Of a DNA stretch of 64,000 nucleotides, positions 1,038 to 37,383 are shown piece after piece. The notes under the pieces were generated by a model, which did not search any database, was not told where the DNA came from, and was given only the letters and a program-made list of their open reading frames with translations. The DNA is taken from contig OX597824.1 of the NCBI GenBank assembly GCA_951406725.2, positions 34,348,001 through 34,412,000 of the forward strand. Reading direction: 5' to 3'. A program made the position numbers and the translations under genes. Source of the stretch: Octopus vulgaris (taxonomy: Eukaryota). Each line of letters opens with the position of its first letter. The first letter of the stretch is position 1.

Positions 1038-4000
1038 GTAAGTTTAATTAATATTTCTACTAAACAACTATATACATAATCCTTTTCCCCACTGGCTGCG
1101 TGCGTACGATCTGATACCAGCATTAATAAGTCTACTTTCAAATTCTGCGAAACAGATCGATAGAACTTTTCGCCAACAGTAAATTCCTCGCCACTTAACA
1201 GTTGCTGCTTTTATTCATGCTTTTAACAACAAAAACAAAACATTCCTTTAATATATTTTGCCGATAGTTTGTTTAACTTTGCTTACAATAAATCATTTAT
1301 TTCCTTGCACGTGATATCGATTCTATTTTCACAAATAGAAGTTTTCAAAAATCTTCCTCTACGCAAATTTGACTTTGTTGAGTCATTCTTCGTTCTGCTA
1401 CCAAACTGTATATACCCAAACATTCTTTAGATATTTAAAATATACGTAATTTTTAATGTAAACTTGAAAACTGTAATGTCGATGCTAATATTTGTTTTGT
1501 TTTTCCTGCTGCTAACTTTTATACTTCGACCTCAAAGCCATTGAAATTTTCCTCACTTTTGTTAATTATGTTGTAAGACGACTAACTTTATTATTCTGTT
1601 TGCAAAGCAAATTTAAAAACATTGTTATATCGTGTAATACTTAAACGAGCAGATGTTATGCTAGTGTTGGTCTTTGCAAATTGTACAAATATACTTGTCT
1701 TCTGTGTTGCAGACATTAATTTTAAATTAATGGATATTTATGTTCTTTCTCCTTGACAGCTAAACAAAATAATTGTGGATAAATTTCCGCTTTATAGTTT
1801 TTATTGTTTTGTTTTGCTTAAACTATATGAAACAGAGTTTATGAATCGGTTTTGAGTTTCAAAAACCTCTCCGGAAAATTAAACCGTTTGTCAGTTACAT
1901 GATAAGCCTAACCTGCTAGAAACAGCAGCAAATCTTCCCTTACCTTTAGAAAAAAAAAAGGGGAGAAAGAACACATCAGATAATGATGTTTTAGACATCC
2001 CTAAAAGGACGGAGTTGCCGTTGAACATAAGTCTGTTCGATAATTGTTGACCAGGGGTTACAAAAAAAACAACATAAAAACGTCCGCATCTCATTAATTA
2101 TGTTTTGTCACATTAACGAAATGTTATTGTAACATGTGGCGAAAAGAAAAAAAAAAGATTATTATTAATATTGATCGAACTGTTGTCACTCACTGACAAT
2201 ATATTTATTAACCTAAATAGAACTTGTAAAATCATAGCGTCTGCTATCAGTCAATTAAGCATCTAATTAATTATCTCCCTATTTTGTTTACATGCTGCTC
2301 AAGATTATTCCTATATACATACATACATACTGTATAATCTACATGTATGTGTGTGTGTAAACAACTATTGAAACATTAAAATAAATCTTATAGAAATTTT
2401 TTCAACTTCAGACTTGAGTTTCATAAAACAATTGACATAATTGTTCATGTCAAATATTTCTGCAATTGTTAAACTTCGGTTTGGTTTTTACAACTTGATG
2501 ATTGTTGATTTACTGAAGACAGTAGTGCTGCGTGCTTAACATTTCGTTTTCCTAACATGTATTTACAATTCCAGAGGTATTTACACTAGACTAATTTTAG
2601 CGATGTATATCGATTACATCTAATATATTCCTGTAGAAACCTTTGCAACTTTTGACTTAATTTCATTGAGTTAATATATTGTTAATTGAAGTAAATTATT
2701 ATTAGTTAATGTCGTTTGTTATTAACTTTATTTATGCTCAGTTTTTACATCAAGATGTTTGTTGATTTGTGGCAGACAACAGCATGGAAGACAATCCGTC
2801 ATGCTTCATGGTGAAATTATGTAGTTCAACATTTAGTTTTCCCAACTTTTCCCCTGTTCATCAAAAGACAAAACATTGACCATGAAATATTGGCAGCACC
2901 ATTGTCACGTGATATTGACGCCATTTTCTGGTTGTCGTTAAGTAGCTTTGTTAGATTATCAACCATTTAATTACCTTTTATTGCTCTTTGCACATCGAAT
3001 ACAAACCCTTAAACTTATTACTGACACAAACCATTATTCTTATTATCACTATTACGATAGATGACATTTTAATTTGAATGTCACACGCACTTGTATCCCT
3101 GTTTTTAAGAGCTTGCTTTATGACACTTGATGCTCGCCAACCTTTTTTTCTTCCGTCTGAAATTGTTGCCGTTTGAGATATATTTGTAAAATTATTTTTA
3201 CTAAACTATTTAATCCACATTCATTTGTGCAACGTAGTTCTTTACCTGGAGACTTTGTCAAAACAATTTACATTTAACGTTGAAGACAAAGCGATAATTA
3301 ATCGTCAGTCCAACTTATAAAATCTGTCATTACTAATGTCACAAGTGCAATTTGACTGTAAAGGGCATTCTCGGAAGGAAATGAAAAACATTTGAAGAAA
3401 ACAGATGTCATCTAGTTGTAATATCCTACGGTGAAGAAATGCTTTGGTCAACTTTTAATTGCCGAGTTGTCAATGCAATTTATCCAACTTTAATTACCTG
3501 ACCCACTGTTACCATAAAAAGTAGCACAAGCATTTTCAAAAAGTGACAGATTGTATTAGAAAGTAGTTCAAATTAAAAGTTTTACTAGTAATTTAAGAAA
3601 TATATTAGAACTGCTTGTAGAGTCAAAACGAAAGATTGCTTGGATCATTTCTAATTTATTTAGTCGATAAGTTAATAATATTCAACAGAAATTTTACATT
3701 TTAGAAATTAAAGTTTTAAAGTTACAAGTAACCCAAATCGGGGTGGCGGCGGGAGAGTAGCTGCAATGCTGATATATATCGTAACTCTATCAGCTACCTT
3801 GGAGTGATTGAGATTTCAATCACGATTGATAACGTCACACCTTGCACGTGCACGTACATCTTGCACTTGTAACTGGGTTAAAGAGGTTTTAAAGTTGAGA
3901 GATAAGTCTGAGTTTGTGGCCATTAAAAAGTAGTACAAGCTGAAAAAGAATGAAGTAGTGATAAAAGGTTTCTTTTATCACTTGTTCTTTCTTATTATTT

Positions 4001-5049
4001 TTCATTATTTATGAAGTACCTGTCAAGTATCGACTCAAGTCGATAATAACGACTAACCCCCTCCCCGTCAAAACTTGGCCTTGACCAAAAATTTGAAACC
4101 ATTATGTTGTAGTATGATAGTGTTTGCAGGAATAATGTATTTATACATGATGAGCAGCGTGACTTGTATAAGTTCATGTTGAACACCCGCTGTCACGTTT
4201 AGGATGGATCTGTCAATTGGTCGAATCCACCGTGAAGATCTTTTTGCTGCCTTCCTTTGGCGGGAAAAGGGCAGGTAGTCTTGGGAGTTTTTATCTGTTT
4301 AACAGCTTTGGCAAATGAGATTTGTATGGTGAACCGCACTGACAGGACTGAAGACAGACACGTTCCTCTTTGGCCAAATTTTCATCAACTTTTTCAAGTT
4401 TTACTTGAAAAGGAAAATAAAGACAGAGAGGGAAGTGCTGCTTTCCATCAAGTTTGTTGAAATATGGATGGAAATCAAAACCAATAGTAAATTTGAAAAT
4501 ATGTTGTTCAAAATAAAGATTACCGAAAATACTCTTTGACTTTTTTAGTATGGAAAATCTGGAAAAAGAAAAGAATTCTTCAGCTCTGGTATGACATCGC
4601 ATTTCTGTGACTTTCACAAGTACCCTAGACTCCACTCCACTCCACTCCACTCAATTACTTATATCATTCAATCATTAATACTTGACATTAATATTTCATA
4701 CCAAATTACAAATTAATTTACAAAAGAATATGGATTATAAAAGTAAACAGTAAAAAGATAGGTAGTCTTGGAATACCTATATCTTGAAGTCCTATCCATC
4801 ATTGGAAAGGAAAAGGGTAGTCTTTCTTTTTTTACCCTTCATTGAGTTTGCAAGTACATGGTTAGCCTATGTGAGTGTTGTACTGGTCTGACCAAAGCTA
4901 AGAACCTCCTCATCCATAATACCACAAACATGAACCTGAGAACTCACTCTGGATGACCAATGTGATGTATCAATTTGACAGTAAAACTGGATATGTGTGT
5001 GTGTTATGAAGAGAGATTCTTAGCACAATTGATCCACAACTGAATAGAC

Positions 5050-11003: not shown

Positions 11004-11912
11004 CAAGGTCGTGTCAAAAAAATTCATGGACTAGTTCTGTAGTGTGCCAATAGATAGCAGCAATGGTTGCACGTGCAGTGAGAGCTAGCAATGACTTTCA
11101 TGAGGCAGTGTGCTGAGTGACATCGCTGTGTTTACTTTGCAAGTTGTGAAATTTGTGTTTTTTTTTATTATATGTATGTTGTAGTCTGTGATTTTTGTTG
11201 TGGACAGGAAGTTGGAACAAAGTGCCAGCATGAAATTTTGCGTGAAACTTGAGAAGTCTGCTACAGAGACACTAAGCATGCTTTGGCACACTTACAGCGA
11301 TGAGACAATGGCTCATACACAATGTTTCCTGTGGCACAGGTGCTTCAAAAGCAGAAGAACATTCCTGGAAGACAAAGGACATTCCTGGAAGACAATGAGC
11401 AATCTGGAAGATCTGCCATGAGTGTCACTTCTGGAAATGTAGAGAAAATTCATCAGCTTGTGCATGAGGATCGTCAGAGGATAATCAATGACATTGCTGA
11501 TGTTGATGGTGTCGTATGGCTCAATGCAGGTAATCCTAACATTCACGAAGTATTGGATTCTTCACAACAATGCACCCTGTCACTGAGCTCTCTTCACTTA
11601 TGAGTTTCTTACCCAAAACAACATGGTATCACTTCCACACCCACCCTATTCCCATCTCTTCCCCAAGATAAAAATGCAGCTAAAACATCACAATTTTAAC
11701 ACCATTGTCAAGATCCAGAGTGAATCGCAGAAGGTCTTCAACTTGCTTACAGGAAACAATTTCCAGACCAGATTCCAAAAGTGGCAGGAATGCTGGGACT
11801 GGTGTATTGCTGTGCGATGTGACTATTTTAAAGGAGATGATATTAAAACTTAAGTAAATAATTTATTTTTTATTAAACGTGACTAGTCCAGGAACGTTTT
11901 GATACCACCTCA
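11004..11912 (+). mobile_element. Internally deleted mariner element
   Basis: TA flanks and imperfect ~30-bp TIRs ending GGACTAGT. Transposase remnants EQSASMKFCVKLEKSATETL and LPHPPYS-HLFPKIK. Confidence 0.85.
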
Positions 11913-12879: not shown

Positions 12880-13860
12880 AGGGAAATTCGGAGTGAACTT
12901 AAAGAGTTTGATGAGGACTACAATTTACTGGTTCAGATAATTAAAAGTTGCAAGTGGAAGATAAGAGCAGATAGGAGCTTGACAGAAGAATCTTGGAGGA
13001 AATGAACAAGATGCTAGAAAAATGGAAAACTATGAATCACCTGAAGTATTCCATGTTCTGCAAAGCAATCAGACAGCAGGTGCTGATGCAAGCTGCAGAA
13101 GAAAGGAAAAGTCTAATAACCTGCAAGAGAGATAGCACTTAAAAACCAAGACGTTCAGGGTGACAGACAATCGGGAGATGGAAGACATATGCAAAACCTT
13201 CTACCTTAACTTTTATAAATCATCAGTGAAGCTTTATCCTCCACCATCACAAATGTTGGAAGAAGTGCCACTTATTCTGGTCTGTGAAATTGAAACTTCC
13301 TTCAAACTAATAGAAACAGATAAAGCTCCTGGGGAAGAGGGCATAACAGGAGAAATGTTAAAGTGCAGAGGCGAAGAGCTATGGAAAAGCCTTGTTCAAA
13401 GCTTCAGTTGCTGTCTGAAGGAGGGTAAAATACCTGCACTATGGAAAGAGTTGAATACCATCTTGCTTCATAAGAAGGGTAATGAAGAAGAATTAATCCT
13501 TTAGCATATAAACAGACCATATCAGGCCCAAATAATCTTTCTGTTTTATGATCCGACCTTTCACACCTGTCCTACAATGTCGTTCTAAAAATAAAGAATC
13601 ACACACTATTGAAATCTTGAAGTTTTGAGATACTGCAAGATTAATTCTCAAGAACAAGAATAAATAAGCATTACATTTGATAGAGTAATCTGAATGCTAA
13701 AGGGTTAAAAAAAACAACAAAAAAACTTGCACCCCATATGATTTTTCTCTGTTTACAAAGGTCATTGTCACCAGACTATTGAAACACCTCAATGACCTGT
13801 ATCAGAGTGAGTCACCAGGTTTCTGTAAGACCTACCGTGCAATAGTTGGAATCAGTAAAA
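12880..13860 (+). mobile_element. LINE RT N-terminal fragment interrupted by a TTAA MITE
   Basis: DKAPGEEGITGEML...IPALWKELNTILLHKKG; the homology appears to resume after 13708. Confidence 0.75.
13497..13704 (-). mobile_element. piggyBac-type MITE (about 210 bp)
   Basis: TTAA on both sides; ends (T/C)CCTTTAGCAT / ATGCTAAAGGG. Confidence 0.8.
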
Positions 13861-14846: not shown

Positions 14847-15045
14847 GCCTTATATGAAATTGTTTTAGGTGTGAAAATATCTGTTGCTGGATTCCCAGGA
14901 AAACGAGATGAGCAGTCTTTGATCGTTATGAATCACCGCACTCGGCTGGACTGGTTGTTTGCATATTCTTTTATGTTACGTTGTGGATCTCTTAGGCATT
15001 TGAAGATAGTTTTAAAATCTGGCTTAAAAAAAATTCCTGGTGCCG
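14847..15045 (+). CDS. LCLAT1: LCLAT1 coding exon 2 (acyltransferase motif I NHRTRLD)
   Basis: polyT-CAG acceptor; ALYEIVLG...MNHRTRLDW...LKKIPGA; donor GTAAGT; 199 nt, ends phase 1. Confidence 0.95.
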
Positions 15046-17389: not shown

Positions 17390-17946
17390 GTAAGTTTCTT
17401 AACTAAAATTAAAATTGTTGGATAAAATTTAGTTTCATCTTTGTTAATATACCTAGGGGAACATGTCTTGTACAGTTTATTTTAATATGGTTTCTACAGC
17501 TGATTTCCCTTCCCAACACCAACCACTCTAAGGTGTGTGCTGGGTCTATTTTTACCATGACATGGAATCTAGTTGTCATATCTTCAACCACACAAGACAA
17601 GAGAGTTCTTTTGAATTCATGGTGTCTCCATTTGTTAACCAACAATTTTACAAGGTGTACTGGATACAGTGTATTGTGGCACCAATATGAGAGAGGTTAC
17701 TTTGCATTCAAGACCAAGGCAGTATCCTCCTCATTGCTCTACAATTGCCCCGTTCGTTAAGGATGTGACCAATAGAATAGGTAGAAAGGAGGGCAATTGC
17801 TGATAAATAAAGGTGAGAAGGAGAAAGAAGAGCGAGAAAGAGTTGATGGAGGAAACAGAGGGGTGGGGAGAGGACTACTAATGTAGAAGAGGAGAGGGGT
17901 AATGAGAGAAAGAATGCTAGAGGCACAATGAAGAGTTATGGCATGG

Positions 17947-18154
17947 TAAGGCAGCGAGCTGGCAGAAACGTTAGCATGCCGGGCGAAATGCCTAGCGGTA
18001 TTTCGTCTGCCGTTACGTTCTGAGTTCAAATTCTACCGAGGTCGACTTTGCCTTTGATCCTTTTGGGGTCGATTAAAATGTAAACGACTTAATCCGTTTG
18101 TCTGTCCTTGATTGTTCCCTCTGTGTTTAGCCCCTTGTGGGTAGTAAAGAAATA
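17947..18154 (+). mobile_element. tRNA-derived SINE family B copy
   Basis: Head GGCAGCGAGCTGGCAGAA...GAGTTCAAATTC and tail GTGGGTAGTAAAGAAATA. Copies at 18956-19185(-), 34319-34540(-), 59501-59720(+) and 63583-63797(-). Confidence 0.8.
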
Positions 18155-18188
<34 letters not shown>

Positions 18189-19214
18189 AGCAGGAATTTC
18201 ATACAGAGTACTATGGATACTCTGGAGGAGTTTCAGGATTACAAACAGGCTGTAGCTGTCTAAGACAAGTAGCACTAGAAGTACCCATGTGATCTATTTA
18301 GCAGTAAATGTGACTGCTCTCAAAAATGAAGTAAAGACAGGTCAGAAAGATTTTATCTCTGCTCACAACAAAGGACTCCCCACTACAATGAAAGGGCAGA
18401 TTATATGATGTTTGTGTTTGAAGTGCAACACTGCAAGGAAGTGAGATGTTGGCATTGAGCACAGAGAATTGAGAATGGCGTTAGGAAGGGCATCCAGCTG
18501 TAGAAACACTGCCAGATCAAACTGGGCCTGGCGCAGCCTTCTGGCTTCCCAGACCCCAGTTGAACCGTCCAACCAATGCTAGCATGGAAAACAGATGTTA
18601 AACGATGATGATGATGATGATAAAGGAAAGAGAGGTAGTATGTAAGAGAGAAGACTTTGTTACTACAGGTATGTGATGTAGATGGAGGATGAACAACTGT
18701 ACAAGGAAATACCAAAAATGCAAAGTGAATAGAACCTATGGAAGAGGAGATCAAAGGAAAATTTAAGGTAAAGAGGTGAAGACAGATCTCAAGATGTTGC
18801 ATCTTCTGAAGGAAATGACTAAGAACTGTAATGAGTGGCAACATCACATTATCAGCACTGACCATTTCTACAACTTTCCATCACTCACTCACTTTTAAAC
18901 ATGTAGCTGCCAGCAGTGTTTCTCTACCATCATTACTGCGATTCTCATTATACCTGTTTCTTTACTACCCACAAGGGGCTAAACACAGAGAGGACAAACA
19001 AGGACAGACAAACGGATTAAGTCGATTATATCGACCCCAGTGCGCAACTGGTACTTAATTTATCGACCTTGAAAGGATGAAAGGCAAAGTCGACCTCGGC
19101 GGAATTTGAACCCAGAACATAACGGCAGACGAAATACGGCTACGCATTTCGCCAGGCGTGTTAACGTTTCTGCCAGTTCGCCACCTATATATATATATAT
19201 ATATATATATAATG

Positions 19215-19555
19215 TGTGTGTAAACAGTTAGCAGTTATAATAGCCAAATTAGGGATAAAATATCTATATATACTATTGGTATCCATTACCCGTATTATCC
19301 CTGGGCACTGGTGTGCAGGCACACCATGCATGTGGAGTGCAGGTAACAACGGGATAAACAAGAGTTTATCAGGAACCAATGCAAATAATCCTTTCTTTTA
19401 GCCTCTCTGGGCCAGCCTCTTAGCTTTTGAGGCACCATCTACAATTTTTGTTGCAGTTAGTCTAATTTTTAAATCTGATCCTGGTTTCCATGTTTTTATG
19501 AGATGATAGATAGTGGCAAGTTTACTTTTTCTTGTGGTGAAGTTGCACTTTATAT
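19215..19555 (-). mobile_element. Degenerate PLE reverse transcriptase fragment
   Basis: LATIYHLIKTWK...IRL...VMDTNSIY...IPNLAI resembles the PLE P..Y.L.K.HK..RPI...SLDV.SLYTNIP pattern. A second copy lies at 29770-30260(-). Confidence 0.55.
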
Positions 19556-19714
19556 ATATAATATTGGCTTGCTTCCTTACCACATGGTTCCAGGTTCAGT
19601 CCCACTGCATGGCACTTTGGGCAAGTGTCTTCTACTATAGCCTTGGGCCAACCAAAGACTTATGAGTGGACTTGGTAGATGGAAACTGAAAAAACCCCAT
19701 TGTATGTATGTATG

Positions 19715-19750
<36 letters not shown>

Positions 19751-19867
19751 ATATATATATTAGAAGATTTGGAGGTGATGTACAGGTATTATATATTAGA
19801 AGAAATAAAGTACTCAGAAATATTTACAGATTTTTATTAATATGTCACATGTTTTTATAAATTATAT

Positions 19868-19906
19868 ATTAGCGCTTGCATCTACTCTAGTAGACTCTTC
19901 AGATTT
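19868..19906 (-). ncRNA. Decayed minimal hammerhead motif
   Basis: CUGAAGA-GUCUAC-UAGA-GUAGAU-GCAA-GCGC-UA; GAAA is mutated to GCAA and the AGCGCU segment is palindromic. Confidence 0.5.
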
Positions 19907-20010
19907 GAATGTGTTTGAGATGATTCCTCTCTTTTTATAGCATTATTGAGTGTGTGGGGGTGGGGAGAGATATAGGATAGTAAAAGAGGGTGAAGAATGG
20001 GGAGAAAGTG

Positions 20011-20740
20011 AGAGAGAGTGTGTGTGTCTGTGTATCTGAAAGGAGTGTCAATGGAAAAGAGAAGGGAAGAGAGAAAGAAGAAAAAATGTGTTTACATCTT
20101 TACAGCTGGTCAGTTCTTTCAATAGAAAGTGATGAGTTGATTCTTGGCCTTTAAAAATGGTAAAACCAGGTGGCTACTCTGAGGGGGTCTTGATAAAAGT
20201 TATTTTTCAAAAAATTGTCTGGATTTATTTTCATCATTGTCCAGCGAGAGAGAGTGTGTGTGCCTGTGTATCTGAATGGCGTGTCAATGGAAAAGAGAAG
20301 GGAAGAAAGAAGAAAAAATGTGTTTAGGGTCTTGACAGAAGAAAAAATTGTGTTTACATCTATACAGCTGTTCAGTTCTTTCAATAGAAGATGACAAATT
20401 GATTAATAAGTTATTTTTCAAAAAATTGTCTGGATTTATTATTGTCATTGTCCAGTGAGAGAGAGAGAGAGAGAGTGTGTGTGTGTGCGCACACCTGTGT
20501 ATCTGAAGGGAAGAAAGAAGAAAAATGTGTTTACATCTTTACAGCTTGTCATTTCTTTCAATAGAAAGTAATGAGTTGATTATTGGCCTTTAAAATGACA
20601 AAACTGGGTGGCTACTCTAAGTGGGGTCTTGATAGAAGAAAAAATTGTGTTTACATTTGTACAGCTGTTCAATTGTTTCAATGGATGATGACAAGTTGGT
20701 TAATAAGTTATTTTTCAAAAAATTGTCTGGATTTATTATC
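20011..20740. repeat. Imperfect tandem array of about 3 units of roughly 230 bp with shuffled internal blocks
   Basis: Repeated GAGAGAGTGTGTG...TGTGTTTACATC...TTCAATAG...AAAAATTGTCTGGATTTATT blocks. Confidence 0.8.
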
Positions 20741-20952
20741 ATCATCATCATCTTCCTTGTCCAATGTTTGACTTCTCGTGCTGGAATGGGTTGGAAAATC
20801 TGGATGTAAGATTGTTTCTATTTATGTATATGTACATATGTATAGTACTGTGTGTGTGTATGTTTAATACAAAGTTACAGTTTACTTTACAAAATTGGTC
20901 CTTCATACAGTACAAATCATTATAGAAGTAGTGATATTTCACCAGTCACAGC

Positions 20953-21003
<51 letters not shown>

Positions 21004-21247
21004 TTCAAGAGGAATGAAGATAGGAACAATTCTTTACAAACCTGAAGATATTAGGATGGATAATAATGTACAAGGGAAAGTGTCTTGTGAAGGAGTTCGA
21101 TGAAACAGATATGCATACAAATTCTTGTGCATCGTGAGGACATTATTATAGAGACTAAGCTAATAGTTCCAGATAGGTTTGCCAAACTATATGGCAAGAA
21201 ACATAAAAGAAACTTACTCCCCATTCCTCACCCTCTTTTACTATCCT

Positions 21248-21708
<461 letters not shown>

Positions 21709-21712
<4 letters not shown>

Positions 21713-22145
21713 TGTTATATTTCGGAATGGTCATATTGCCAGTTTAGCCAATAAAAACACACGCACTATATATTTGGTGTTATTTTGCTTCAGTGATATT
21801 TATTTTTTACATTAATCTTAATCTTATTTCGGCCAAAGTTCTTTCGTCACACTCCTGTGACCGCATCAGTGGTCCTTTGTTTTCTTCTCACTTACTTGTG
21901 TCTCTCCTTACTAACCGTCAGCTGACGGTTAGTAAGGAGAGACACAAGTAAGTGAGAAGAAAACAAAGGACCACTGATGCGGTCACAGGAGTGTGACGAA
22001 AGAACTTTGGTCAAATAAGATTAAGATTAATGTAAAAAATAAATATCACTGAAGCAAAATAACACCATTCCGAAATATAACAATATCTGTTTCAACACAC
22101 GACTTCACATAAAAAATCTTGCACAACAAATATTTAAACGTACTA
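21709..22145. repeat. Fold-back palindrome of a PLE-type unit (family X), about 146-bp arms, centre 21921/21922
   Basis: 21775-21921 pairs with 21922-22067 with no spacer. A non-folded homologue lies at about 25213-25480. Confidence 0.9.
21969..22012 (+). ncRNA. Minimal type I hammerhead motif (mirror copy at 21831-21874 on -, paralog at 25264-25307)
   Basis: GACCA-CUGAUGC-G-GUCAC-AGGAGU-GUGAC-GAAA-GAAC-UU-UGGUC. The paralog has the canonical CUGAUGA. Confidence 0.65.
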
Positions 22146-22467
22146 TGTGTATATATATATGTGTATATATGTATATATATATATGTGTATATATGTATAT
22201 ATATATGTGTATATATGTATATATATATATGTGTATATATGTATATATATATGTGTATATATGTATATATATATGTGTATATATATATGTGTATATATGT
22301 ATATATATATATGTGTATATATGTATATATATATATGTGTATATATGTATATATATATATGTGTATATATATATGTGTATATATGTATATATATATATGT
22401 GTATATATGTATATATATATATGTGTATATATGTATGTGTATATATGTATGTGTATATATGTATATA

Positions 22468-22508
<41 letters not shown>

Positions 22509-23323
22509 ATATATGTATATATATATATGTGTATATATGTATGTGTATATATGTATGTGTATATATGTATGTGTATATATGTATGTGTATATATGTATAT
22601 ATATATGTGTGTATATATGTATATATATATGTGTGTATATATGTATATATATATATGTGTATATATATATATATATATATGTGTATATATGTATGTATAT
22701 ATATATGTGTATATATGTGTATATATGTATATATATATATGTGTATATATGTATGTATATATATATGTGTATATATGTATGTATATATATATGTGTATAT
22801 ATGTATGTATATATATATGTGTATATATGTATGTATATATATATGTGTATATATGTATGTATATATATATGTGTATATATGTATATATATATGTGTATAT
22901 ATGTATATATATGTGTGTATATATATATGTATATATGTGTATATATATATGTATATGTGTATATATATATGTATATATGTGTATATATATATGTGTATAT
23001 ATATATGTATATATGTGTATATATATATGTATATATGTGTATATATATATGTATATATGTGTATATATATATATGTATATATATATATGTATATATATAT
23101 ATGTATATGTATGTATATATATATATGTGTATATGTATGTATATATATATATGTGTATATGTATGTATATATATATATGTGTATATATATGTATATATAT
23201 ATATGTATGTATATATATATGTGTATATATATATGTATATATATATGTATATATATATATATATGTGTATATATATATGTGTATATATATATATGTGTAT
23301 ATATATATATGTGTATATATATA

Positions 23324-23418
<95 letters not shown>

Positions 23419-23419
23419 G

Positions 23420-23467
<48 letters not shown>

Positions 23468-23485
23468 GTATATGTATATATATGT

Positions 23486-23533
<48 letters not shown>

Positions 23534-23671
23534 GTATATATATGTATATATATGTATATATATGTATATATATGTATATATATATATATGTATATGTATA
23601 TATATGTATATATATGTATATGTATATATATGTATATATATATATATATGTATATGTATATATATGTATAT

Positions 23672-23703
<32 letters not shown>

Positions 23704-23798
23704 GTATATATATGTATATGTATATATATGTATATATATGTATATGTATATATATGTATATGTATATATGTATATGTATATATATGTATATGTATATG

Positions 23799-23864
<66 letters not shown>

Positions 23865-23880
23865 GTATATATATGTATAT

Positions 23881-23978
<98 letters not shown>

Positions 23979-23982
23979 GTAT

Positions 23983-24021
<39 letters not shown>

Positions 24022-24114
24022 GTATATATATATATGTGTATGTATATATGTATATATATATATATGTGTATGTATATATGTATATATATATATATGTATA
24101 TATATGTGTATATA

Positions 24115-24166
<52 letters not shown>
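22144..24166. repeat. About 2-kb compound (TA)/(TG) microsatellite
   Basis: Seen directly; this is the source of the long Y/I/M/C/H/T pseudo-ORFs. Confidence 0.98.
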
Positions 24167-24167
<1 letters not shown>

Positions 24168-24369
24168 TCTTTACTCTTTTACTTGTTTCAGTCATTTGAC
24201 TGCGGCCATGCTGGAGCACCGCCTTTAGTCGATCAAATCGACCCCGGGACTTATTCTTTGTAAGCCTGGTACTTATTCTCTCGGTCTCTTTTGCCGAACC
24301 GCTAAGTGACAGGGACATAAACACACCAGCATCGGTTGTCAAGCAATGCGAGGGGGACAAACACAGACA

Positions 24370-24459
<90 letters not shown>

Positions 24460-24630
24460 TACATATATACGACAGGCTTCTTTCAGTTTTCGTCTACCAA
24501 ATCCACTCACAAGGCATTGGTCGTCCCGGGGCAATAGCAGAAGACACTTGCCCAAGATGCCACGCAGTGGGACTGAACCCGCAACCATGTGGTTGGTTAG
24601 CAAGCTACTTACCACACAGCCACTCCTGCG
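24167..24630 (-). mobile_element. tRNA-derived SINE family A copy (central TA/TG tract, ...GACTGAAACAAGTAAAAGAG tail)
   Basis: Head GCAGGAGTGGCTGTGTGG...GGTTCAGTCCC. Near-identical copies at 33853-34258(-), 40491-40914(+), 44381-44778(+), 47772-48188(-), 52081-52427(-) and 53241-53461(+, internally deleted). Confidence 0.9.
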
Positions 24631-24834
24631 ATATAAATTTAACATTCACTCTATGCTGATTGGTGATACAGTATGGGTAGATTTTCGAAATTCAATGAAT
24701 CTTTATACATTTATAGTTAGGGAATTATACAAATATACTTTTTCAAGGAGATATGATAAGCCTATTATAATGGGTAATACTACATGTACTTTTTATATTT
24801 TTTATATTGTAATGTAATCTTTGGACTAACAATG

Positions 24835-24927
24835 TTTGCGACTGAAGAGAGCTTTAAACCATCTTTTATATTAATACACTGATGTAATAACGGATTGTTT
24901 ATAAAGCTTGAAACACGTGTACCGTGA
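24835..24927 (+). ncRNA. Type I hammerhead motif with long stem II
   Basis: UUGCGA-CUGAAGA-GAGCUUUA...UAAAGCUU-GAAA-C-ACGU-GUA-CCGUGA. ACACGUGU is palindromic; there is one stem I mismatch. Confidence 0.7.
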
Positions 24928-25740
24928 TATCCTTTGTGTTCTGTTTTTAAATAATATTTTATATATATATATACATACATACATACATACATGTGTGTGT
25001 ACATATAAAGAGAAAACAACAACGCGAGGACGTGGAACAAGTACGGTATTATTGGACGCTCATGAAAGAAGGAGGGTTTAACGTTTCGAGCGGAGCTCTT
25101 CGTCAAGAAACATAGGAAGAGGAAAGATCCAAAAAAGGGAAGACATATATATGTGTGTGTATATGTGTTTGTGTGTAATAAAGACGCACAGTAGGAATAC
25201 GAAATACAAAATGGCTGACCGTTATTAAGGAGAGACACACAAGTAAAAAAGAAGAGAGCAAAGGACCACTGATGAGGTCACAGAAGTGTGAGGAAAGAAT
25301 TTTGGCCGAAATAAGATTAAGATTAATGTAAAAAATAAATAAAGCTGAAGCAAATTAACACCACATATATAGTGTGTGGGTTTTTATTGGCTAAACTGGC
25401 AACATAACCATTCCTAAATACAACAACATCTGTTTCAACACACGATTTCACATCAAGAATCTTGCAAAACAAATATGTAAACATATATACATATATATAT
25501 ATATTTGTGTATGTATGTATGTATATATATATATATATATATATAATCCAAACAGAAAACACAACAATGTGAGGACGTGGAGCAAGTATAGTGTTATTGG
25601 ATGCTCAGGAAAGGAAATAAAGGAGGATTTAATGTTTTGAGCGGAGCTCCTTATCAGAAACATAGAAAAAGGAAAGATCCATGGAAGGGAAGACGGAGGA
25701 AAAGAAATCACCAACGATACATACGCGGTCACATATTGAA

Positions 25741-25792
25741 TGTATATATATATACATGTATGTATGTATGTATATATATACATGTATGTATG

Positions 25793-25823
<31 letters not shown>

Positions 25824-25875
25824 TGTGTATATATGTATGTATACATGTATGTACTTGTGTATATATATATATGTG

Positions 25876-25962
<87 letters not shown>

Positions 25963-25963
25963 T

Positions 25964-26012
<49 letters not shown>

Positions 26013-26248
26013 ACATGTATGTATATGTGTATATATATATATATGTACATGTATACATGTGTTATATATATATATATATATATACATGTATCTATATATA
26101 TGTATCTATATGTGTATATATATATATATATATACATGTATGTATTTGTGTGTATATATATATGTGTGTGTATATATATATATATATATATGTATACATG
26201 TATGTATATGTGTATATATATATATATGTATGCATATGTATACATGTG

Positions 26249-26279
<31 letters not shown>

Positions 26280-26296
26280 CTATATATATGTATCTA

Positions 26297-26341
<45 letters not shown>

Positions 26342-26354
26342 CTATATATATGTA

Positions 26355-26400
<46 letters not shown>
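25741..26400. repeat. Compound (TA)n microsatellite
   Basis: Seen directly. Confidence 0.97.
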
Positions 26401-26403
<3 letters not shown>

Positions 26404-26404
26404 G

Positions 26405-26772
26405 AGCGAGAAAGAAGCAACAAGAATGGATAAGTTTTTAGTACAATCGTTTCATACAAAGACAGGCTTTATTAAAAGTTGCAAAAATTGCAGCATATAA
26501 ACGTGTCCCGTACTCATCAGCTAAAATACATGTGAGTTCCCTAGACATCTTAGTGGTTGAGGCTATACTCATGAAGTAATGTAGATAATTATCTACATTA
26601 CTTCATGAGTATAGCCTCAACCACTAAGATGTCTAGGGAACTCACATGTATTTTAGCTGATGAGTACGGGACACGTTTATATGCTGCAATTTTTGCAACT
26701 TTTAATAAAGCCTGTCTTTGTATGAAACGATTGTACTAAAAACTTATCCATTCTTGTTGCTTCTTTCTCGCT
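26405..26772. repeat. Perfect 368-bp palindrome (184-bp arms, centre 26588/26589)
   Basis: AGCGAGAAAG...GTAGATAA|TTATCTAC...CTTTCTCGCT; no spacer and no mismatch seen. Confidence 0.95.
26651..26741 (+). ncRNA. Intact type I hammerhead ribozyme motif (mirror copy at 26436-26526 on -)
   Basis: Stem I UUUUAG/CUAAAA; core CUGAUGA; long stem II GUACGGGACA...UGUCUUUGUAU; GAAA-C-GAUU-GUA. Predicted cleavage 3' of A26735. Confidence 0.8.
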
Positions 26773-27082
26773 TATAATCACCCCACATTACTGTATTGTT
26801 AAAACCGTATAGTTTTTTGGTGCATCTAAGTTAGGTACCATATTCAAGTAAATTCATTAAAATTGACTTGAATCTTTATTGCTTTTTATATATATATACA
26901 TGTATCTATATATATAATAGTTATCGCCATACTAATATGGCATTCTTATAAAAATAAGAAAAAAGCTGTCCGCTTATTAGCTCCATGAGGCCATCGCCTT
27001 AAGTTAGCTATTTGATACACAAACTGTATCCATATAACCTTCGAACAAGGGAGGTCAGTCGCTCCACACTACTTGACCGGCA

Positions 27083-27129
27083 GCTACAGACGCGTTTCGG
27101 AGTATTGCCCCTTTTCAATGCAGCGTAGC
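27083..27129 (-). ncRNA. Decayed minimal hammerhead motif of the PLE type
   Basis: GCUAC...UUGAAAA-GGGGC-AAU-ACUCC-GAAA-CGCG-UC-UGUAGC; ACGCGU is palindromic. Confidence 0.6.
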
Positions 27130-27451
27130 CAGCCAGTAGGTGTCGCTTCCGACAATCTCTGTTCGATGGTTTTATTTACCTAGTTTCGGTGGAATACATC
27201 CACTTGTTTTCAATAATAGAAATATTAAAATAACTAAGTCTCTCTAAAAGAGACTTAGTTATTTTAATATTTCTATTATTGAGTTATATTTACCTAGTTT
27301 CGGTGGAATACATCCACTTGTTTTCAATAATAGAAATATTAAAATAACTAAGTCTCTTAAGCTAAAGGCACCAGAATTTCGTTTGGTATTATCCATATAA
27401 ATCAAATGGGGTGATTATAATCAAAATAAGTAACAAGGATATCCAAGGTAG

Positions 27452-27539
27452 TGTAGTACAATTGTTTCATGCTACTTCATTTTATTAAACACTGTAAGTA
27501 TTACATCAGTTTTAAAATGTCCAGCAATCTTCAACCACA
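27452..27539 (-). ncRNA. Long-stem-II hammerhead motif (C3 to U)
   Basis: UGUGG-UUGAAGA-UUGCUG...UAGCAU-GAAA-C-AAUU-GUA-CUACA. The flank resembles the 26405 unit. Confidence 0.6.
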
Positions 27540-28459
27540 TATAGAATTTTTTAAAATTAAATGGACAATGCACATTCTTATACTTATTTCACTTGCCAAC
27601 ATTACTAAGATGGTAGATATATACACAGAGAGGTTAATTTCATAATTAATAACATGGTGGTAGTATGTTCCTCTCTGTCTGTAGATTTTTTATCACTGAG
27701 TTCACTTTGTTATTTAGATCTATCAGTGGGGAGGGGGTTTTCTATTCTTGGTTGAATGGAGACAAACAATAATTTTTTTCTATTTATAGATAGAGGAAGG
27801 GGTAGTACAAATGTCAAAGCGATAAATCCATCCATACATTTGAATGTATTATAGCAAAAGCATGTAGGCTGAAGTTAGTGGGGTAGGGAGAATAGAGACT
27901 ACTAATGCTCTAGAGGTTTTCAATGTCCCTTACCATTTAACAGCCATAATTCTGTATTGTGAATTTTAAATAAATATCCTTTAGATAATTTTCTGAAAGA
28001 TTCCAATATATATTAGTGTCTTATATAGGGATAGAAAATATAGAAATCATTTCATATTTATATAAATATATATATATATCCATTTCTATTAATATAGAAT
28101 CATAGTTAGTTAGTAAATAGTGATTTATTTTATTAATGAGTTAAATTAAAAGAATATGTTAGACATAATATTTACTAACTGTGGAAAAAAAAAAAACCTT
28201 ATCAATTTAGCACATATATCAGGAATCAATAAGATATATTAAAATGTAATGTAAGGGAGGTAATCAAGATGAACCAAATAATTTCCCTAGATATATAGAA
28301 TTTTTTGCAATCCCATATAGGAGAATATAAAAGAAATTCTAATTTCACTATATTTAAATTTATTTATATAAAAATCTCTCCCACTGATAAAGAACCTAAT
28401 AAATATAAGACTAAAGGGAATAACGAATCCTTAAAGGATATGGATAACATTAATCTTTC

Positions 28460-29340
28460 CCACCCTTACTCAAATAAAAAAATTCAAAAGAAAAAATATT
28501 GTATGGCTAAATATTCCCTTCAACTGTACAATTTCTACGAACATATACGGCAAATTTATGTCCATACTAGAAAAAACTTCCCTGCTTCCCATAAATATTA
28601 TAAAATAATTTCTAGTAAATCAGTGAGAATATCATACTCTACTCTTTCAAATATGGGTACCATAATAGCTAGACTAAATAGAAAAAATATTAAGTTAGCT
28701 AGAAATGGAATAAATAGTAACAACAATAATAATGATAATAATAAATATGATGATAATAATAATAATAACATTAATATAAACAATAATAATATCAATAATA
28801 TGAATGATAATAATAAAAATGTGGAAAGTGAGGAAATTAGGAAAAAATTAGTAACAAACAACTCTAACTTACATAACAATATAATTATAGATAAGGGAAA
28901 TAACACTAATGCTAGTAATAGCTCTAGTTATGAAAATAAAAACAGCTTGTTCCTAAATAATACTAATATCGGGAATCACCCCCCACCCCCCACCCCAGTT
29001 GTAATTGTAGAATTAGATCAAAATGTCCGGTATCTGGTCATTGGTTCAAAATGTAATTTATAAATGTATCTTTATTTCAGATGTTCCATAGACCTAAAGA
29101 AACGTTTGAACAATCATTTTTTCTTCTTTTAGACTTAAACATAAGGCGGGTTGCACAATGCTGTCTAGTAAAATTTGGGAACTGAAGGAAAAAAATATCG
29201 AATTTAACCTAAGATGGGATATAATAAAAAAGGCACAGCCTTATAAAAATAGTAGGGATGGATGTGAACTTTGTTCTATGGAGACATAGGAAATTTTGAA
29301 ACATAGTAATAATACAAACTTATTGATTAACTGTTCTGAA
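28460..29340 (+). mobile_element. Penelope-like element pseudo-ORF: RT C-terminus, Asn-rich linker, Cys motif and GIY-YIG endonuclease remnant
   Basis: NFPASHKYYKIIS..SVRISYSTLSNM..II..LN; CNCRIRSKCPVSG; NVIYKC; LKKRLNNH; TMLSSKIWELKE...W.II....PY......CELCSME, across frameshifts. Confidence 0.8.
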
Positions 29341-29769
29341 TAAGTCTTTGGGCCGATTTGTTTGACTAAAAACCTTCAAGGAAGTTCTCCAGCATGGCTG
29401 CAGTCAACTAACTGTAACAAGTGGTCATTATCAAAAGATTATATATATCTCATACTGCTATTAATTAAAATGAGAAAGACCTTTATATCTCATCTTTCAA
29501 TAGCAAATCACAATAATAACACTGCCATGTTTCCTTCTCGGTGACAGTGTAAGGAAGTGTACCATTATCGTTTCGCACTTGCTTTTCCACAACATTTCAA
29601 TATTTTATTAAACACTTTGCAATCTGGAACATTTTATGCGTATCATCCTTATGCCATGAAACGTAAAATCTACTTTCTGCTTTTCTCCTTGCTAATTACA
29701 TCTTATGTTTTACTTTCCTTCTTTGAATTACTTGATAAAGTTCTCTGCTTATTCCTTTCTTTCAGTCTT

Positions 29770-30260
29770 TCTAGGCCACCCTCTTGAGTTTTGAGGCACC
29801 AGCTGCAATATTATTGCAGTTAGTCTAATTTTAAAATTTGATCCTGGTTTCCATGTTTTTATGAGATGATAGACGGCTGCAAGTTTACTTTTTCTTGTGG
29901 TGAAGTTGTACTTAATCTTGTTTATAAGTAAACTCTCTTCACAGGTGTTCGTCCAGCCAGTGTTTATGATAGCTTTCGAGCTGGCTAGGTGTGATGTTAT
30001 TGACTTTTTCATGTAATGTGACGGTGTTAAGATGCTTAAATGCCAAGTTGTCATAGTTATCTATTAAACAGAATTCTCTCCCTTGATCTGAAGATGGGCT
30101 TATAAGCGTTAAAAAAAAAATTTAAATTTTTTTCTTTTAACAGGTTTTTTTTGTTTAGAGTCAGGAATCGGGAGTTGAAGAAAGTAAAGGATGGAGTGGA
30201 ATGTTTTTGTAAGGGGCTGAAATTTTTCCCAGTTGTATTCTTGTAGTGATAGGTCTTATC
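29770..30260 (-). mobile_element. Second degenerate PLE RT fragment (same family as 19215-19555)
   Basis: Shared FTTRKSKLA..YHLIKTWKPGS..KIRLTA. Confidence 0.55.
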
Positions 30261-30566
30261 TCTTCCAGTTACACTTGAATGACATCACACATATATTTTA
30301 TTCAACACTATCTCATGTGACGTTAATTATTTACACACATTCATCTCAAAAGTGAATAGACTCCATCATTTTTGAAAAATTTATTTCTAGGAACAAGATA
30401 ATGTCATTTGATGCATTTAAATATTTAAACTAGTGTTTAAAAGGCTTACCTTGTGCACAATACTTTAACAAGTTTGAAGCATCAGGCAGCATCTGCACAG
30501 GTTAAGAAATATAAATCTGCTGTAGTTGATACTGAAATACTATTTTGAAGTTTGTTTTCTTTGCAG

Positions 30567-34705: not shown

Positions 34706-35964
34706 CAGGGGTTGGACAAAATAATGGAAACACCTTGCATAATAGCATCATAATTTTGAAATATTTATAAAACTGTCAAAAGTTTATTTATTTTCTTATT
34801 AGTGTTGCTTAATATGCTTTGCTAAAATTGCTGTTTCTTTTCAGATATCATCACAAAAAGGTAATTAAAATTCATTAAAATGACAGATCTGTCGGGCTTT
34901 CAAAGCAGTCAAATTATTGGTGCTCGTATGGCAGGTGCTAGTATAACAAAAACAGCCGAAATGTTTGGTGTATCAAGAAGTACTGTCTTGAAAGTAATGA
35001 CACAGCCTTTGAGAAAGAGGGAAAAACCTCCTTGTCGAAACAAAGCTCTGGAAGAAAACCAAAACTTTCAGATAGTTTGGACTCTTACGCAAATTGTTAG
35101 AAAGGATCACAAAAGTACAGCTCCCAAAATTACTGCAGAGCTTAATGGCCACCTCAAGAAGCCAGTTTCCACAAAAACTGTTTGCCGGGAGCTGCACAAA
35201 GCTGGATTTCACAGGAGGGTTGCAATCAGAAAACCACTACTTTCAAAAACAAATGTTGCAAAGTGTTTAGAGTGGAGTAAAAACTTAGAGAATTGGTCCC
35301 TAGAGCAGTGGAAGAATGTTATTTTCTCGGACAAGTCCTCATTCACCTTATTTCCGACCACCAGCCAAGTATACGTGTGGAGACAGCCAAAAGAAGCATT
35401 TGTCCCAGACTGTCTTCTCCCAACTGTTAAACATGAAGGAGGATTTGTGATGATCTGGGGGGCTGTATCTTGGAAATCTGCTAGCCCAATGGTTTCCCTT
35501 CATGACAGAATTAATAGTCAAGACTATTTAAGCATTTTATCCGATCAAATTCATCCTATGGTTGCAGAACTGTTTCCAGAGGGAAACGCAATCTTTCAGG
35601 ATGATAATGCACCAATTCCCACAGCTAAAATTGTTACTGAATGGCACGAGGAACATTCTAGTGAAGTTGAACATCTTATCTGGCCACCACAGTCCCCAGA
35701 TCTCAGTATTATTGAAGATTTATGGTGCATTTTAGAAAAACAAGTAAGGAGTTGCTATCATCCATCGTCATCACTACAAGAACTGGAGACTGTTTTAGCT
35801 GAAGAATGGACAAAAATTCCTTTGGAAACAATTCAAACTTTGTACGAGTCCACACCTTGTAGAATTCAAGCTGTAATTACTTCCAAAGATGGTCCTACCC
35901 CATATTAAAATAGATAGATTTGTTTGAAATTTTACGGTGTTTCTATTATTTTGTCCAACCCATG
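34706..35964 (+). mobile_element. Full-length Tc1-like transposon with DD36E spacing (Incomer-like)
   Basis: TA TSD; about 29-bp TIRs CAGGGGTTGGACAAAATAATGGAAACACC with 2 mismatches; 1259 bp long. Confidence 0.95.
34880..35908 (+). pseudogene. Tc1-family transposase, 342-aa ORF, probably defective
   Basis: IFSD, QDDNAP and SPDLSIIE motifs with D-x36-E. Compensating frameshifts at about 35001-35077 and substitutions DESSF to DKSSF and NAPxH to NAPIP. Confidence 0.85.
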
Positions 35965-36895: not shown

Positions 36896-37383
36896 ATAAC
36901 CAAATGGAAGCTATTTGGGACCTTTCAATTGCTTATCCTATTAATATTCCTCAAGATGAAATTGATATCGTCATGGGAAATTTTCCAAAAGAAGTTCACT
37001 TTTATGTCCGTACATTTCCAAATGATAAACTCCCTCAAACACACGATGACCTCATACTCTGGTGTAAAGATGCATGGAGCACAAAAGAAAATCTGCTGAA
37101 ACAATTTTATACAGAGAAATTTTTCTCAGCAGAATTAAAATCAAATCCAAGAGGCCCATATCGAGCACGAAGTGAGTTTTTGGTTCGCTCTATTTTATAT
37201 GTGTTTTTGATAGGTTGGAGTATTTTGTTACTTTTTATGCTCTACTGTTTTTATTGTTCATCATTTGTTCGCTGGTACTGTCTGTTCATCAGTATCTTCT
37301 ATACTGTGATAACTACATCATATTTTGGAGTGGACATTTTGCAAACAAAAATACTTGATTGGCACAAAGAAAAGAAATGCTAA
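36896..37383 (+). CDS. LCLAT1: LCLAT1 terminal coding exon (C-terminal domain, two TM segments, KxKxx ER-retrieval end KEKKC)
   Basis: TCTAG acceptor; (D)NQMEAIWDLSIAYP...WCKDAWSTKE...KEKKC-stop. Spliced CDS totals 1128 nt = 375 aa. Confidence 0.95.

Follow-up and report, generated by a model that had tools for sequence, protein, structure and literature searches.

A palindrome carrying a hammerhead motif on each strand in an Octopus vulgaris intron is probably the inverted end of a truncated Hydra-clade Penelope-like retrotransposon

Results

Organization of the palindromic locus

The window analysed here is a 64,000-nt stretch of the Octopus vulgaris genome (contig OX597824.1, forward-strand positions 34,348,001 to 34,412,000), whose own numbering is used below. 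As originally described, it contains a perfect 368-bp palindrome: the two arms (26405-26588 and 26589-26772) are each 184 nt long, are 100% complementary, and meet with a 0-nt spacer. The element extends beyond the palindrome to approximately 26887, on which the original prediction did not remark. The features of the locus are given below, with reference positions being those of one natural copy of the family, L062, of 4637 nt.

17390-30566, + strand: intron of the host gene (LCLAT1-like acyltransferase), within which the main arm is sense-oriented
25743-26400, unstranded: (TA)n-rich target tract, left flank
26401-26404, + strand: four extra bases belonging neither to the element nor to the TA tract; similar short additions are present at this end in many other copies
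26405-26588, - strand: tail-less inverted arm of the pLTR, whose outer end is reference position 4511, within the fixed tail-less end of the family (4511-4515)
26436-26526, - strand: mirror hammerhead motif, with a predicted cut after the residue at 26442
26586-26591, unstranded: native, self-complementary junction hexamer TAATTA, common to both arms (6-nt microhomology)
26589-26772, + strand: main sense pLTR arm, 5'-truncated at reference 4325-4328 and matching other copies in the genome at up to 100% identity
26589-26887, + strand: tailed main arm in full, tail included
26651-26741, + strand: type I hammerhead motif (stem I, 26651-56 with 26736-41; core, 26657-63)
26773-26887, + strand: the "tail", about 115 nt long and found on just one of the arms; in tandem copies it lies immediately upstream of the ORF start
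26888-26919, unstranded: (TA)n-rich target remnant, right flank

Exons of an acyltransferase gene flank the site on the + strand, with matches to PF01553 at 14871-15044 (E = 1.1e-5) and to PF16076 at 36925-37110 (E = 4.5e-12). The name LCLAT1 and the count leading to "intron 3" are our assumptions, based on motifs presumed to characterize this gene. The earlier placement of the palindrome against a TA tract in LCLAT1 intron 3 was borne out as to the tract and the intron, and the numbering is correct provided that coding exon 1 is the Pfam-negative frame at about 861-1037.

Several further repeats were observed in the window. A 75-nt direct repeat (27169-27243 and 27283-27357) encloses a palindrome of about 73 nt (27210-27282); this structure (27169-27357) lies 280 bases to the right of the element and belongs to another repeat. 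Another repeat, about 140 nt long, is represented by two diverged copies (83-87%) at 25009-25144 and 25554-25694, spaced 545-550 nt apart. Frames at about 35500-35680, 11185-11850, and 13136-13500 resemble remnants of Tc1/mariner transposases and of a LINE RT.

The element belongs to a high-copy Penelope-like family

With the right arm plus 28 bases as the query, 1961 first-look candidates were obtained in the genome, and the 40 that were scored yielded 50 matches of 96-100% identity; the family size is about 2,000 candidate matches. The similarity among copies runs to approximately 26887 and then gives way to TA, and other copies continue upstream of the palindrome centre into a long element. 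The palindromic copy in the window is without an ORF. An open frame of 690 aa was found in L031, and among six regions fetched as full-length copies, four (L058-L061) had open frames of 976-984 codons and two had shorter ones.

The L058 protein (encoded at 1877-4747) is 957 aa long from its methionine and comprises an RT together with a C-terminal GIY-YIG domain. The whole protein gave no match against Pfam, and its sub-regions matched RVT_1 (E = 3.8e-4) and GIY-YIG (E = 1.1e-3), both under the curated cut-offs. Alignment with seven of 42 database relatives extended along the RT and endonuclease, except for two Asn-rich inserts at approximately residues 490-570 and 655-810, which were missing or far shorter in all seven. 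An Octopus sinensis protein was among the database matches, with 70% identity over 40% of the query. Motifs identified in L058 included RWK (residue 37), DKT (residue 124), and YRDD, as well as CxCx5C, CxxC, and CxH from residues 818, 915, and 936 onward, respectively.

The Hydra clade of Penelope-like elements (PLEs) was defined by a C-terminal GIY-YIG, RWK, a change of DKG to DKT, a CxCx5C linker, and CxxC/CxH (Craig et al. 2021, PMC8557442). In L058 the CxxC and CxH surround conserved E and N residues, as in that definition, and no CCHH endonuclease motif was apparent by eye in the alignment. On the strength of the motifs that are present, with the reference proteins compared by eye, the family is assigned to the Hydra clade. 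The hallmarks of endonuclease-bearing (EN+) PLEs are also present: a single ORF for RT and GIY-YIG, pLTRs in partial tandem, inverted 5'-truncated copies, and a tail at one end.

The family shares with published Hydra-clade PLEs, including Hydra-1_Obim, the C-terminal GIY-YIG, RWK, DKT, CxCx5C, and CxxC/CxH near the end of the protein, together with a canonical hammerhead, (TA)n targets, an inverted 5'-truncated copy, and a tail at one end (PMC8557442). It differs from the members described there in having two Asn-rich inserts and a long 3' UTR, a unit of about 4.6 kb encoding 957 aa rather than one of under 3 kb encoding about 700 aa, and a tail of approximately 115-120 nt rather than 30-40 bp. 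The reference unit of 4637 nt exceeds the "under 3 kb" of the clade due to the Asn-rich inserts and the long UTR, and that size is described as a tendency and not as a criterion (PMC8557442). We considered and rejected identity with Hydra-1_Obim, which is 2507 bp long, encodes 709 aa, and has a different hammerhead, the two being set apart by eye only (PMC8557442). The family is of a long, Asn-rich Hydra type, unlike the published octopus Hydra family. An octopus repeat annotation lists 31 recently active Penelope-like families, and the word "Hydra" is absent from its main text (PMC13282606); the present family may already sit in an automatic repeat library. The family itself is probably undescribed. 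For the study of PLE insertion products it is useful in having ORFs that are intact, a sharp boundary at either end, and no fewer than 108 tail-less junctions on a single strand.

Adjoining one copy of the family is an intact-looking frame of 781 aa with RT and GIY-YIG (L035, 2437-4779, - strand), which belongs to another PLE family. Two family RT matches lie less than 3 kb from contig starts (G000, C23:2652 and C26:2461).

Inverted copies share a single architecture

When the genome was searched for the tail-less end abutting TA, 108 matches were obtained on the reverse strand and 310 on the forward strand, the latter with each site counted several times. The sample consisted of all 55 distinct sites among 100 matches listed, on contigs C1-C5, and was chosen by the tail-less end only. 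An inverted partner was found at 44 of these, 9 had no partner, and 2 were tandem arrays; the latter 11 sites were left out of the junction statistics. Every one of the 44 inverted partners ended in a tail, at reference 4624-4637, so that both outer ends are fixed in the family, the tail-less one at 4511-4515 and the tailed one at 4624-4637. The copy in the window obeys this rule, with its tail-less arm on the left and its tailed arm on the right. As for the (TA)n target, tailed ends were seen to enter TA in loci viewed without selection for TA, and both flanks in the window are TA-rich.

These observations bear on whether the palindrome might be a library or assembly chimera generated by a fold-back read, as the original prediction had cautioned. 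The palindrome is indeed perfect and spacerless, and no public contig listed from four runs bridges its centre. A further zero-spacer palindrome, in L109 (350-590), has a second arm full of 1-3-nt deletions, possible read errors that suggest long reads struggle through such hairpins. Against a chimera, the inverted arm in the window stops at the fixed tail-less end of the family, beyond which come extra bases of the kind usual in the family and then TA, not a mirror image of the tail and flank, and the same architecture was found at 44 of 55 sites. In addition, head-to-head joints of the family were present in two of four public short-read assemblies (7 in X1 and 3 in X3). None of the contigs listed from the four public runs spans the locus, an absence that is uninformative because palindromes collapse in such assemblies. 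We consider a chimera very unlikely.

Taken together, these results led us to interpret the palindrome, with a probability of about 0.9, as the end, inverted head to head, of a 5'-truncated insertion in (TA)n of a young, high-copy Hydra-clade PLE. The remark in the original prediction that hammerheads occur in PLE pLTRs, which can be inverted, fully accounts for the palindrome, and the youth ascribed to it agrees with the 0 differences between its arms and the identity of up to 100% to other copies. Its proposal of an undescribed fold-back ribozyme system is not upheld, the palindrome being no stand-alone ribozyme element but part of a single truncated insertion from an autonomous PLE family. 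Junction palindromes were already published for PLEs (PMC3846280), as were opposite-strand hammerheads (PMC4209133). The locus is real yet ordinary, a known by-product of PLE insertion from a family of known clade, and as one among many truncated, inverted PLE insertions it carries little weight singly.

A similar architecture is that of Penelope in the rotifer Adineta vaga, in which head-to-head inverted pLTRs with junction palindromes, an optional tail, and ORFs with Asn-rich inserts have been described (Arkhipova et al. 2013, PMC3846280). The palindromes named there are 18-38 bp long, versus whole spacerless arms of 147-184 nt here, and the copy number of that family is low, versus about 2,000 candidate matches here (PMC3846280).

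Properties of the arm junctions

We then compared the points at which the two arms of each inverted copy meet. The inner arm ends were within 25 nt of each other on the reference at 16 of 44 loci, versus 2.9 expected by permutation, and within 5 nt at 8 of 44, versus 0.77 expected (P about 5e-5). The arms were unequal by more than 100 nt at 24 of the 44 loci, with the tailed arm longer in 10 and the tail-less arm longer in 14. At near-symmetric junctions, the longer arm was tail-less in 5 cases and tailed in 8. Among 35 simple junctions, 20 were overlapping and 15 had inserted letters. The overlap was at least 3 nt in 10 of the 20, as compared to 6% by chance, with lengths taken from BLAST ends against a copy diverged by approximately 3%.

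The two arms of a locus resembled each other more than they did those of other loci, with own-arm differences at 31 of 6888 nt (0.45%; 30 loci and the window) as compared to 1.95% between loci. Low own-arm divergence was also observed at strongly asymmetric loci, such as L115, L132, and L148. This similarity could alternatively reflect two RNAs of one source locus, or later gene conversion.

Four patterns searched genome-wide yielded 30 near-symmetric junctions (10, 13, 5, and 2). Seven of these, including that of the window, were zero-spacer palindromes, and all seven were centred on native self-complementary hexamers (TTGCAA four times, and TCTAGA, ACATGT, and TAATTA once each). Zero-spacer palindromes were not found with the pattern whose region lacked a self-complementary hexamer. 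The suggested search for other hammerhead-bearing palindromes in the genome was also rewarded: L140 is a perfect zero-spacer palindrome with 147-nt arms and the hammerhead on both strands, although its centre is of 2 nt only. Junction positions are scattered along the element, and many of the palindromes are without the hammerhead. The same junction was present at six loci (L149, L150, L153, L112, and two more) on GTAC, one base off a perfect palindrome and adjoining the hammerhead cut site; it was found in both arm arrangements and is therefore likely recurrent.

Formation of the inverted ends

The junction statistics favour the joining through microhomology of two cDNAs made off one template. 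In such a scheme, the RT-endonuclease would nick both strands of the TA target, and synthesis of a cDNA would be primed at each nick, the tailed start site being used for one and the tail-less start site for the other. Both cDNAs would stop near the same point on the same template, their 3' ends would anneal at TAATTA, and fill-in would produce the zero-spacer palindrome, with the hammerhead carried passively in both arms as the ordinary ribozyme motif of the pLTR. For ends that are identical, pairing is possible only where the word is self-complementary, and the outcome is a perfect palindrome. In vitro, the protein of an anole PLE was shown to cut both strands of its target, to extend them, and to start at two adjacent sites that bracket the tail (PMC11167929), and the origin of inverted pLTRs and one-sided tails in PLEs has been called open (PMC8557442, PMC11167929). 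A literature search covering few subscription papers did not find a junction-level test of double priming in PLEs. The zero-spacer junction of L140 on a mere 2-nt centre speaks against double priming, and snap-back self-priming would account just as well for the small-loop junctions, among them five identical ones. With the joining step inferred from end products, we would give the detail of two cDNAs, one template, and microhomology joining roughly even odds.

Palindromes at PLE junctions have been read in print as the result of snap-back, as proposed for rotifer Penelopes, in which the nascent strand folds and copies itself back (PMC3846280); resolution by the endonuclease would then leave the tail at one end. 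The 16 near-symmetric junctions among 44, the several junctions having 5-20-nt loops and 1-4-nt stems, and the private variants common to both arms are all in keeping with this published proposal. However, at the 24 junctions asymmetric by more than 100 nt the inverted arm does not mirror the sequence adjacent to it, the longer arm is mixed among near-symmetric junctions (the 5 tail-less and 8 tailed noted above), and a zero-loop centre would be hard to form inside one strand. Snap-back alone fits the small-loop junctions but not the 24 asymmetric ones, and we regard it as an unlikely explanation, though not a negligible one. A hybrid, in which snap-back is followed by annealing to a second cDNA, is possible.

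We would tentatively, and at somewhat less than even odds, extend the double-priming reading to the octopus Hydra-clade family as a whole, which would then be a natural record of PLE integration in which both target strands were primed on one RNA and the products joined by microhomology. If true, one double-priming mechanism would explain both the one-sided tail and the inverted pLTR, replacing self-priming on an antisense template, and many intronic dsRNA hairpins would have been seeded in the octopus lineage, in which A-to-I editing is heavy.

Poseidon PAc of Anolis, a member of another clade, resembles the present family in having a pair of fixed RT start sites on either side of the tail, an AT-rich target, and a hammerhead upstream of the RT start sites, but differs in the overlap of its hammerhead with the ORF start (Frangieh et al. 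2024, PMC11167929). In the results considered here for that element, inverted-arm formation was not reconstituted. The position of the hammerhead upstream of the RT start sites, in PAc as here, means that the template must be uncleaved.

The hammerhead motif and the proposed switch

The hammerhead motif reported on each strand was confirmed; its core lies at 26657 on the + strand and at 26520 on the - strand. It comprises CUGAUGA, GAAAC-GAUU-GUA, and a stem I of 6 bp, and cleavage is predicted after A26735. Stem II has a long insert, and the core halves are about 60 nt apart. Two details had been missed: helix III is just 2 bp long, with a quasi-palindromic loop, and pair 10.1-11.1 is G-U. Judged by its sequence, the window motif is a type I, dimer-dependent PLE hammerhead for which self-cleavage is predicted. 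The helix III loop could pair between two copies, with a predicted energy of -7.8 kcal/mol.

Sister-family pLTRs of approximately 74% identity (L013 673-838, L014, L029 2375-2540, and L060 450-543) have G-C at 10.1-11.1 and a stem I with compensatory changes. In two copies from sister families the core is retained, and two of the stem I pairs differ in both partners. Pairing was retained in 98.3% of 60 cells from four related sequences only, a value reached by 18 of 500 shuffles. A search of Rfam returned 0 matches at the gathering threshold and no hammerhead among 62 E-value matches, which were mostly miRNA-like hairpins. Free folding of a single arm did not give the hammerhead (z of -0.31, 1.25, and 0.30), the constrained hammerhead fold coming to -9.7 versus -13.3 kcal/mol.

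PLE hammerheads described previously are likewise of type I in the pLTR, with a short palindromic helix III implying activity as a dimer, and dual motifs lying 100-700 bp from each other on opposite strands are among them (Cervera and De la Pena 2014, PMC4209133). The roughly 60 nt between the core halves and the G-U at 10.1-11.1 are unlike those described there. The activity in vitro of the PLE dimer-type motif is low (PMC4209133). The Non-LTR retrozymes (bioRxiv 10.64898/2026.07.22.740005) are similar in having a short pLTR-related sequence with a type I hammerhead; we rejected an assignment to them, as those are head-to-tail tandems with at least two hammerheads on one strand, whereas the arms here are head-to-head with one per strand, in a truncated copy belonging to an autonomous family.

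It had been proposed that the palindrome acts as a self-silencing switch. In a fuller form of this idea, the hairpin would be selected to regulate cleavage or to feed ADAR or Dicer as a source of small RNA, silencing the family or tuning the host gene. The intron is transcribed in the sense of the main arm and a 184-bp duplex would form, and the hammerhead is conserved with compensatory changes in sister families. However, the palindrome hairpin is predicted at -328 kcal/mol versus -9.7 kcal/mol for the monomer hammerhead, a gap of about 318 kcal/mol from which the hammerhead is predicted to be off at all times. Within a transcript of the intron, the motif would be trapped in the 184-bp hairpin and inactive. 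Each strand carries one sense motif, preceded by its antisense, and hence there is no dimer partner in cis. Junctions are scattered over the element with many palindromes excluding the hammerhead, every A>G difference listed for a possible RNA run was also present in DNA runs, and the copy is too young for selection to show. A look for expression listed no RNA run containing the sequence, which speaks neither for nor against transcription. We therefore consider such a switch very unlikely. The palindrome is likely a by-product of insertion and not a selected switch, and no function of this palindromic copy is implied.

We also considered, and rejected, the idea that cleavage in vivo has left its mark as truncations at the cut site of the hammerhead. 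The lead had been that 3 of 44 arms end at reference 4476-4477 and that 3 of 10 public-contig joints mirror to 26733-26735. A first test gave 13 versus 17 rows, by a design that misses symmetric junctions. The genome-wide count of near-symmetric junctions was 10 at the cut site versus 13, 5, and 2 in three control regions, and thus there was no excess.

Unrelated type I hammerheads were observed near family copies at L078, L102, L110, L114, L144, L018, L022, L023, L103, L123, L142, and L154, with L102 holding one unrelated pair on opposite strands. These suggest the presence of several other PLE families in the same regions.
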